A DNA stretch of 20,164 nt from an uncultured Gammaproteobacteria bacterium. Lineage in GTDB: Bacteria; Patescibacteriota; Patescibacteriia; UBA2591; UBA6264. Position 1 is the first letter of the stretch. Each line of letters starts with the position of its first letter. The position numbers were made by a program, and so were the translations under genes. This document shows positions 14,556-14,829 of the stretch, piece by piece. The DNA lies in contig CAZDOL010000005.1 of assembly GCA_964507075.1 (NCBI GenBank), forward strand, positions 23,437-43,600. Direction: 5' to 3'. The notes beneath the pieces were generated by a model that was not told where the DNA came from, did not search any database, and saw only the letters and a program-made list of their open reading frames with translations.

Positions 14556-14595
14556 TTTTTTTAAAACAAAAAAATACTACTAAAAAGTAGTATTT
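14556..14595 (-). terminator. Terminator/attenuator hairpin between the leader ORF and the HEAT-repeat gene
   Basis: On the minus strand: AAATACTACT-TTTT-AGTAGTATTT (10-bp perfect stem, 14595-14572) followed by TTTTGTTTTAAAAAAA. The TAG stop of the leader ORF (14582-14580) lies at the boundary between the loop and the 3' arm. Confidence 0.55.
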
Positions 14596-14780
14596 ATATA
14601 AAATAAATTAAGTTTAAATAAAAATTGTGCCGGCGGATTACTCTCTCTCTCTCTCTCTCTCTCTCTCTCTCTCTCTCTCTCTCTCTCTCTCTCTCGTTGG
14701 CGGAGTGAAATCTCAAAATACAAAATTAAAAACAAAGACATGATTGATTCTATATTTAATTTTGACTGAGCTAATGACAT
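14580..14780 (-). CDS. Candidate leader peptide ORF containing the (GA)27 tract (encodes (RE)9)
   Basis: 66 aa. AAGGAG lies 12 nt upstream of the ATG, and a TTGACC-17-TATATT promoter lies just upstream of that. However, the predicted TSS falls within the SD, and the composition is repeat-driven, so its coding status is uncertain. Confidence 0.3.
   Translation of the reverse strand: MSLAQSKLNIESIMSLFLILYFEISLRQRERERERERERERERERESNPPAQFLFKLNLFYINTTF
14641..14695. repeat. Dinucleotide microsatellite (CT)27 on the plus strand, (GA)27 on the minus strand
   Basis: An uninterrupted 55-nt ctct... run read directly from the sequence. Confidence 0.98.
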
Positions 14781-14800
14781 AAAATTTGTTTACTCCTTTA

Positions 14801-14829
14801 AATATAGTACAACACAAAAAAGAGGTCAA
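14801..14829 (-). promoter_or_regulatory. Promoter of the leader / HEAT-repeat / giant-protein transcription unit
   Basis: On the minus strand: TTGACC (14829-14824), a 17-nt spacer, then TATATT (14806-14801). It lies immediately downstream of the ybaB terminator. Confidence 0.55.

Follow-up and report, generated by a model that had tools for sequence, protein, structure and literature searches.

We describe here a locus within a 20,164-nucleotide (nt) stretch of DNA from an uncultured Patescibacteria genome (contig CAZDOL010000005.1; this whole stretch is referred to as the window, and all coordinates are window positions), in which a perfect GA-dinucleotide tract lies inside a short leader open reading frame (ORF) ahead of an operon encoding a HEAT-repeat protein and a giant surface protein. 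We regard it as fairly probable that this locus constitutes a phase-variation (contingency) switch acting on a translation-dependent transcription attenuator of the surface-protein operon. According to this proposal, a conserved promoter would start a transcript whose 5' end encodes the leader ORF, and an intrinsic-terminator hairpin with a U-run would lie approximately 30 nt ahead of the first structural gene. A leader ribosome standing at the foot of the hairpin, or inside it, would occupy the 5' arm at the moment when RNA polymerase stands on the U-run, so that no terminator could form, and with the terminator blocked the polymerase would read through into the HEAT and giant surface-protein genes (ON). 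A leader frame ending 35-48 nt upstream would instead let the hairpin form, and most transcripts would stop there (OFF or low expression). Slipped-strand mispairing would add or remove GA units within the leader and, because the unit is 2 nt, a change of one or two units would shift translation among the three downstream frames; a population would then always contain a mixture of ON and OFF cells. Leader translation, termination at the hairpin, the effect on the operon and the rate of switching are what we infer from the sequence in making this proposal.

The anatomy of the locus is observed directly. All elements of the leader module lie on the minus strand of the window, and the promoter, the AAGGAG motif, the 66-codon ORF, the (GA)27 tract, the hairpin with its U-tract, the HEAT ATG at 14541 and the gene for the 2092-amino-acid (aa) protein were all found where the initial annotation, which was made from the letters of the window without database searches, had placed them. 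Read along the minus strand, the terminator of the upstream gene ybaB is followed by the promoter, AAGGAG, the leader ORF with its tract, the hairpin and U-run, the HEAT gene and the giant gene. The ybaB terminator, detected by a terminator scan at 14845..14865 (9-base-pair stem, -12.8 kcal/mol), is the 5' boundary of the leader transcription unit. Beyond it, a consensus search identified a sigma-70-like promoter of the leader/operon transcript, TTGACC-17-TATATT (14801..14829; 10/12), which is the sole match of at least 9/12 between 14300 and 15300 when both strands are scanned, and the AAGGAG motif can be read 3' of its -10 box. The leader ORF (14580..14780 in the ORF listing) starts with the ATG at 14780 and has 66 codons in the present allele; its translation gives the 66-aa peptide MSLAQSKLNIESIMSLFLILYFEISLRQ(RE)9SNPPAQFLFKLNLFYINTTF. 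The tract itself, (GA)27 plus G (14641..14695), encodes (RE)9, begins 106 nt downstream of the -10 box and is perfect (Tandem Repeats Finder: period 2, 27.5 copies, 100% matches); for a GA run of even 30 nt, dinucleotide shuffles of the window give an expectation of 0.00. Further downstream lies the putative attenuator/terminator hairpin, AAATACTACT-TTTT-AGTAGTATTT (14572..14595), with 10 perfect pairs and a 4-nt loop, for which folding gives -9.4 kcal/mol (z = -3.8), and directly 3' of it the sequence reads as a T/U-run, TTTTGTTTT... (14560..14571). The distance from the hairpin to the HEAT ATG is 30 nt in the window and 28-32 nt in all lineages compared below. No Rfam family reached its gathering score, and 14500-15600 gave chance-level matches only (E = 0.7-4.8). 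Likewise, the leader peptide searched against a 5.8-billion-protein database returned only low-complexity noise, and an exact look-up found no record of it.

The position of the stop codons relative to the hairpin is the feature on which the proposed switch would depend. The (GA)27 tract contains no stop codon in any of the three frames. In the present allele the leader ends with a TAG (14582-14580) composed of the last loop base and the first two bases of the hairpin 3' arm. The second long frame, ending ...NFYLNLIYFI and predicted to be ON, stops at a TAA (14594..14596) which shares two bases with the start of the 5' arm, and the short frame, predicted to be OFF, stops at the TAA of a GAG TAA right after the tract (14638..14640), 42 nt before the hairpin. 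Frame analysis thus confirmed what the initial annotation had described, namely a TAG at the boundary between loop and 3' arm and alternative stops at the hairpin foot and at 14640-14638.

The tract is naturally hypervariable. The leader locus was recovered from JGI and ENA assemblies by exact-protein look-ups with the HEAT protein and YbaB, and the GA tract is present in more than 30 independent contigs (JGI, ENA, NCBI and Logan assemblies) and uninterrupted in every contig that spans it. The four spanning contigs of lineage A show 0 mismatches in 600 + 1500 nt of flank and carry 24, 27, 35 and 39 units, the tract being the only variable site in 2.1 kilobases (kb) of identical flank, with a length range of 15 units; a fifth contig of this lineage has 28 units and ends 7 nt past the tract. 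In the sister lineage C (HEAT proteins 75% identical), six spanning contigs contain 19, 20, 20, 22, 29 and 30 units, and their right flank shows 0 mismatches in 1.0-1.5 kb despite the differing unit numbers. The comparison of tract length and frame across related genomes, which the initial annotation had named as a way of checking its idea, therefore turned out in its favor: lengths differ between copies with identical flanks, and the tract recurs at the equivalent site in nine diverged lineages. Approximately 17 further contigs end within the tract, which they reach from both sides, and about half of the short-read assemblies break there, fragmenting metagenome-assembled genomes exactly at the operon of the HEAT and giant-protein genes. 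Since the tracts (38-79 nt) are shorter than the assembler k-mer (k=141, as given by the k141_ names of ENA contigs), these breaks suggest length heterogeneity within samples. The initial annotation had cautioned that the tract might be an assembly artefact. Junk near the tract at some contig ends (a poly-A run in L005, 'tacgcgcacacacaa' in L041) would fit an assembly or sequencing artefact, but such an origin is exceedingly improbable, given that 15 contigs from differing assemblers and sources, belonging to nine diverged lineages, span the tract with clean unique flanks, and that the tract is shorter than the k-mer; its presence in more than 30 independent contigs disposes of the caveat. Scanning of the window for tandem repeats revealed no second long simple repeat, and 230 kb of related DNA contained one simple array only, an unrelated octamer. 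This array, (GTGAATCA)7, lies at 994-1049 of contigs L035-L038 (lineage I2), between DUF5663 and Y1-transposase genes, and has an equal length in all four contigs.

To place the tract in its evolutionary context, we collected twelve lineages of the module, nine with the tract (A, B, C, D, E, G, H, J and K) and three without (F, I1 and I2). Among the tract-bearing lineages the identity of the HEAT protein falls to 68% and LepA is only about 81-88% identical, and a perfect GA tract occupies one equivalent site. A promoter scoring 9-11/12 is found 19-24 nt upstream of the leader ATG in all ten lineages examined for it. The frame of this ATG contains 0 stops in 10 of 10 lineages, while the two other frames contain one to four stops in nine of them; the exception is lineage G, with a pre-tract stretch of 24 nt in which one alternative frame is stop-free as well. 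In a nine-lineage alignment, 97.8% of the cells of the hairpin stem are paired, compensatory changes occur at four of the ten pairs, and the T-run columns are invariant. The tract-less lineages retain the same arrangement. Lineage F keeps the promoter, the hairpin and an ORF from the homologous ATG, which ends at the foot TAA, whereas in lineages I1 and I2 (HEAT 49%, LepA 77-78% identical) the hairpin is replaced by an unrelated, GC-rich one, GACCGCC-TTAG/TTAA-GGCGGTC (-16.5 kcal/mol), followed by a T-run, at the equivalent place and with an unchanged distance to the HEAT ATG; their 48-codon leader ORF has its TAG or TAA in the terminator loop in both sublineages. An ORF open from ATG to hairpin, as seen in the tract-less relatives, arises in only 1.3-4% of dinucleotide shuffles. 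The leader peptide, by contrast, is poorly conserved, with only a loosely hydrophobic core recognizable across lineages. Because the ORF is kept open and its stop is placed while the peptide diverges, the conserved properties appear to be the translation of the leader and the point at which translation ends, which is the signature of a regulatory leader ORF. As to the extent of the sampling, a scan of the GTDB species genomes with the HEAT protein and with the hairpin pattern gave no match, the clade being absent from that collection, and a metagenome scan with the hairpin pattern returned six loci only, with few extra alleles. One carrier of the lineage B module, L010 (GCA_030656375.1), is labelled 'Bacteroidales bacterium' at NCBI and is probably a mis-binned contig.

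The reading frames of the natural alleles follow the same geometry. In lineage A, alleles with 24, 27 and 39 units lead to the loop stop, that with 28 units to the foot stop and that with 35 units to the early stop, so all three frames occur among the natural alleles of this lineage, and the early-stop frame is in use in the 35-unit allele of contig L001. In lineage C, 19 and 22 units lead to the loop stop, and 20, 29 and 30 units to the two early stops. Across all nine tract-bearing lineages, one frame stops at -45/-48 relative to the hairpin (GAG/GAT-TAA), and at least one frame reaches the hairpin (-1 or +13/+16); further stops lie at -35/-37/-38 in some lineages, and the others at -1 and at +9 to +16. 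Both long frames are open in lineages A, B, D, G, J and K, the loop frame is the sole long frame in lineage C, and the foot frame is the sole one in E and H, the foot TAA being the stop used by lineage H as well as by the tract-less lineage F. Since the long frame that stays open differs among lineages, these patterns point to selection on the stop position rather than on the peptide. The idea put forward in the initial annotation, that a change in repeat number gives frame-dependent ON/ON/OFF control, thus needs to be narrowed: the stop geometry is supported by the comparison, and lineage A does combine two predicted ON frames with one predicted OFF frame, but lineages C, E and H have one ON and two OFF frames.

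The same comparative data bear on a rival explanation, in which the leader is either a tiny gene in its own right, with its own terminator and a hydrophobic product containing a variable RE repeat, or a dispensable leader carrying a neutral microsatellite; transcription of the operon would then depend on a different promoter or on constant read-through, and changes in the tract would have no bearing on regulation. The leader is fairly well conserved in its N-terminal half when I1 and I2 are compared (four synonymous and three non-synonymous changes in the first 24 codons), the hydrophobic core can be recognized across lineages, the natural alleles show no frame bias, and a weak promoter-like TTTATA-17-TAGTAT overlaps the hairpin in lineages A-F, all of which would agree with such a view. 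We nevertheless find it rather unlikely. The leader is strictly linked to the HEAT/giant pair, lying immediately upstream of it in all lineages despite a varying upstream context (integrase, ybaB, small RNA or other genes); the frame in use downstream of the tract changes from lineage to lineage, and upstream of the tract the peptide diverges freely; lineages G, H and I have lost the weak internal promoter, and a search between the tract and the HEAT ATG gave no promoter shared by all lineages. Moreover, a neutral microsatellite should decay, but a perfect tract of 19-39 units persists across lineages with LepA identities of about 81-88%.

Another explanation would leave translation aside and treat the tract as a 'volume knob', whereby expression scales with tract length, not with frame, through the folding, processing or stability of the 5' untranslated region (UTR) or through H-DNA/triplex structures impeding RNA polymerase. 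A (GA)n sequence is a mirror repeat able to form a triplex. The tract is transcribed and lies between the conserved promoter and the operon, the minimum-energy fold pairs most tract bases weakly with an upstream U-rich segment (36 of 55 at 27 units), and length-dependent 5'-UTR repeats have been documented for hmw, where an ATCTTTC repeat is combined with an RNase III hairpin (PMC12721329). When we folded the naked leader RNA with 0-39 units, the terminator pair probability was 0.90-0.93 throughout, and no tract-dependent antiterminator or structure competing with the terminator appeared at any of these lengths. A switch operating through RNA structure only was rejected on these grounds, and the predicted independence of terminator formation from tract length also speaks against a graded effect of the tract. 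Such an effect would further leave unexplained why every lineage maintains an open frame from the first ATG onwards, why the tract-less lineages have foot or loop stops, and why one post-tract frame is closed at once when at least one always reaches the hairpin. Hence, control by tract length as such seems unlikely to us.

We also considered that leader translation controls the translation of the HEAT gene, not termination. The ribosome would melt the hairpin and end about 38 nt before the HEAT ATG, where it would re-initiate or leave the start region opened, and after an early stop the start would be poorly accessible. The frame logic of this explanation is identical to that of attenuation, and the HEAT ATG, which follows the hairpin at 28-32 nt in every lineage, lacks a Shine-Dalgarno sequence. 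The conserved U-run and the GC-rich terminator of lineage I are, on the other hand, features of intrinsic terminators that a translational occluder would not need, and in the predicted folds the hairpin and the HEAT start region are not paired with each other; we therefore judge this explanation quite improbable. Finally, the hairpin might act at the DNA level as a palindromic operator, the actual promoter being the conserved TTTAAA...TATAAAT. We rejected this as the principal interpretation: the stem changes seen in lineages G and H are compensatory, lineage I swaps in an unrelated GC-rich terminator and keeps the U-run and the stop in the loop, and the best internal promoter scores 8/12 and is lost in G, H and I.

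Several observations weigh against the translation-dependent attenuation that we favor. The hairpins of the tract-bearing lineages are AT-rich and weak (-8.6 to -11.4 kcal/mol, 2-4 G-C pairs), and the hairpin of the window fails the criterion of the terminator scan (at least three G-C pairs). The leader is predicted to have a 5' UTR of just about 12-17 nt, and its Shine-Dalgarno sequence is not conserved across lineages, so that leader translation is a prediction; most genes of the window, however, also lack such a sequence. In addition, the model presupposes the coupling of transcription and translation, which is an assumption for bacteria of the candidate phyla radiation (CPR). The contig breaks within the tract can also come from stutter in the polymerase chain reaction or in sequencing, and neither ON nor OFF frames are over-represented among the natural alleles (about 9-10 of 17 ON against about 7.5 by chance, which is not significant). 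When lineage E is compared with A, conserved nucleotides just before the tract are read in different frames, and the stretch from tract to hairpin is conserved at the nucleotide level; part of this conservation may reflect a DNA or RNA signal, for instance the TTTATA-17-TAGTAT site, a promoter-like sequence of only 8/12 overlapping the hairpin, which lineages A-F have and G, H and I have lost. A further concern, raised by the initial annotation, was that the predicted transcription start site falls inside the Shine-Dalgarno sequence of the leader. This carries little weight, because most of the ORFs checked in the window (14 of 16) have no Shine-Dalgarno sequence; a similar motif precedes only two starts, those of a 136-aa gene at 6435 and of the leader ORF, and translation initiation in the host genome seems to be largely Shine-Dalgarno-independent.

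The operon that would be regulated begins with the gene of a 303-aa membrane-anchored HEAT-repeat protein (13630..14541, minus strand, Pfam HEAT_2 match), which has 19 homologues in Patescibacteria metagenomes. The second gene (7315..13593, minus strand) starts 36 nt after the HEAT gene stop, adjoins the HEAT gene in every relative and encodes the giant secreted protein of 2092 aa, with four LTD, three LamG-like/DUF1080 and Ig-like domains according to Pfam; the N-terminus of its translation, MNIVHKKSILFGLIFFLGIGITTNAFA, is signal-like. Comparison of this N-terminus and of the HEAT protein with PDB sequences and NCBIfam added no information. Within the giant gene there is a direct duplication (10526-10825 / 11639-11938) whose copies are 97% identical and spaced by 1113 nt (371 aa), and in contig L003, with otherwise identical flanks, the giant protein has 1721 aa, which is exactly 371 aa less. 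Since this version is shorter by exactly one duplication spacing, the giant protein also varies between populations in the copy number of an LTD-containing module. The closest named relatives of LepA and the HEAT protein belong to 'Candidatus Parcubacteria bacterium 4484_255' and 'Patescibacteria group bacterium', and several genes of the window end in TGA and therefore use the standard bacterial code.

The surroundings of the leader contain further elements. A structured RNA candidate of about 72 nt, with a closing stem and two UUCG-loop hairpins, occurs as two paralogues in the window (15168-15244 and 18721-18790, both minus strand); it folds with -26.4 kcal/mol (z = -2.9), ends in a T-run and has no Rfam match. 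Copies lie beside the leader module in most lineages (L010, L018, L019, L024, L026, L033, L035), and compensatory changes were found at three pairs across eight sequences. A second element resembling a small RNA (sRNA), about 147 nt long (15310-15456, minus strand), stands behind an equal upstream motif and has a closing stem GGUGUUAG...CUAACACC enclosing two internally repeated hairpin modules (a period-14 tandem repeat at 15348-15430); it folds with -32.7 kcal/mol (z = -4.6), has a homologue in lineage F (L012) and likewise matches nothing in Rfam. Each sRNA-like gene is preceded, in all lineages, by a perfect DnaA-box-like motif AGTTATCCACA, followed by GGT(A/G)TTGCTAAAAAAA and a -10-like TTCTATTA (15293, 15509 and 18843, minus strand), which may represent a dedicated promoter or regulator site of these genes rather than an element of a replication origin. 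Between the sRNA and the leader promoter, a truncated ybaB (81 aa, 14895-15140) is present in lineage A only, when compared with L018/L019/L024/L026. In lineage C the terminator sequence AACCAACCCGACGGGTTGGTT, identical to that of ybaB, directly follows the sRNA, and hence ybaB was inserted or deleted here; a near-copy of the same terminator is found after the second sRNA paralogue, at about 18690. A 19-nt palindrome, TTGGAGACTTAGTCTCCAA, occurs in four copies (903-921, 19723-19741, 19941-19959 and 20044-20062; 0 expected by chance), three of which cluster in and around an IS200-like Y1-transposase gene (19257-19919), and may correspond to end hairpins of the IS200/IS605 type. Every ORF of the window with a family match lies on the minus strand; on the plus strand we found two adjacent tRNA-Met (CAT) genes (2974-3122) and no others.

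Phase variation is seen chiefly as a strategy used by pathogens adapted to their hosts. A full-text literature search yielded no paper linking simple-repeat phase variation or contingency loci to CPR bacteria or Patescibacteria, the one CPR paper on 'hypervariation' being concerned with a 9-mer coding repeat in a Gracilibacterium; this is apparently the first phase-variation locus based on a simple sequence repeat to be noted in CPR bacteria. Besides the CPR host and the series of natural alleles, the locus is of interest because its lineages can be arranged in a putative evolutionary series, from a fixed attenuator (I) through phase-variable forms (A-E, G, H, J and K) to a re-fixed one (F). 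We would give about even chances to the broader interpretation that this is the first documented simple-repeat contingency locus of the CPR, by which small-genome and probably episymbiotic Parcubacteria stochastically switch a giant surface protein serving as host attachment factor or phage receptor, and that the lineages record its origin, with a constitutive attenuator made of leader ORF and terminator (I) turned into a random switch by the birth of (GA)n, and with lineage F having lost the tract, probably secondarily, and being locked ON. If the switch works as proposed, uncultured ultra-small bacteria known from saline, freshwater and hydrothermal metagenomes would hedge their bets on the display of a 2000-aa surface protein, and the locus would offer a concrete handle on how they manage host attachment or phage exposure. 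It would also mean that a phase switch composed of leader peptide and terminator, known from a single species, evolved independently, and that related lineages preserve its derivation from a non-variable attenuator.

The proposed mode of action has its closest mechanistic parallels in attenuation that depends on the coupling of transcription and translation and dispenses with an antiterminator, as in the E. coli pyrBI leader and rph-pyrE (work of Turnbough and Landick). There, as we propose here, termination is suppressed when a ribosome trails RNA polymerase as far as the attenuator hairpin or beyond it, termination returns once a frameshift makes translation end upstream, and no competing RNA structure is required. 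The rph-1 frameshift of strain K-12, described by Jensen in 1993, reportedly ends translation early and lowers pyrE expression. The differences are that UTP is sensed through polymerase pausing in those systems and that the rph-1 frameshift is a laboratory accident, whereas the built-in hypermutable tract described here would make frameshifting frequent and reversible. Attenuation of the trp/his type, in which antiterminator and terminator are mutually exclusive, does not agree with the terminator probability, which is 0.90-0.93 whatever the tract length; Arg/Glu 'sensor' codons might nevertheless be provided by the (AGA GAG)n run.

With the classical contingency loci (Neisseria opa with CTCTT, H. 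influenzae lic/hif, Campylobacter poly-G and Mycoplasma vlhA with GAA) the locus shares a perfect hypermutable tract, length polymorphism within identical flanks and the association with a surface protein. Unlike in those cases, the tract is located in a separate leader ORF, outside the structural gene as well as the promoter and the region upstream of it, and dinucleotide tracts of this length are unusual among the described contingency loci. Switching by promoter spacing (hif, nadA, vlhA) does not fit the locus, since the only conserved promoter has its -10 box 106 nt upstream of the tract. In H. influenzae hmw1A, heptamer repeats in the 5' UTR are subject to RNase III processing, and expression falls gradually with repeat number via a long hairpin between the repeat and a G-rich segment (PMC12721329). 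In both cases the repeat is transcribed in the 5' region of an operon, an adhesin operon in H. influenzae, and its copy number varies naturally; unlike the hmw1A repeat, the GA tract has no strong complementary partner, and an ORF with its stop positions is conserved instead.

The initial annotation had taken the mechanism to be previously undescribed. This was mistaken, since identical logic was demonstrated for the pilus operons pil1 and pil3 of S. gallolyticus, which are preceded by a leader ORF with 22 or 13 GCAGA repeats and a stem-loop terminator (Danne et al., 2014; PMC3894217). In that species a short leader ending 39 bp before the terminator is associated with low expression, and out-of-frame changes in repeat number produce longer leaders, with high expression, whose ends lie immediately ahead of the hairpin, inside it or past it; mutation of the leader ATG, added stop codons and deletion of the terminator behave as the model predicts, isolates vary in repeat number, and one of them has another stem-loop at the equivalent position (PMC3894217). 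The locus in the window, as far as can be read from sequence alone, has the same components, namely a promoter, a leader ORF with a repeat whose unit is not a multiple of three, a terminator hairpin and an operon for a surface structure. In both systems one frame stops early, 39 bp upstream of the hairpin there and 35-48 nt upstream here, where we predict the OFF state, and the other frames end before, within or beyond the hairpin, giving the ON state in S. gallolyticus and predicted to do so here. Unit numbers differ between isolates or populations in both, and in one S. gallolyticus isolate, as in our lineage I, a different stem-loop has taken the place of the terminator. One host is a Gram-positive pathogen and the other, unrelated to it, an environmental CPR bacterium, and there is no sequence homology, the locus being an analogue and not a homologue of pil1/pil3. 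The repeat consists of 19-39 GA dinucleotides rather than 13-23 GCAGA pentamers, the hairpin is less stable (-9 versus -18.7/-28 kcal/mol), the leader lacks a conserved Shine-Dalgarno sequence, and the cargo is a HEAT protein with a giant LTD/LamG-like protein rather than a sortase pilus. Hence, the mechanism itself is not new, and the locus is best regarded as an independent, non-homologous example of the pil1 type, one in which, unlike in S. gallolyticus, tract-less relatives appear to show the ancestral module of leader and terminator without the switch.

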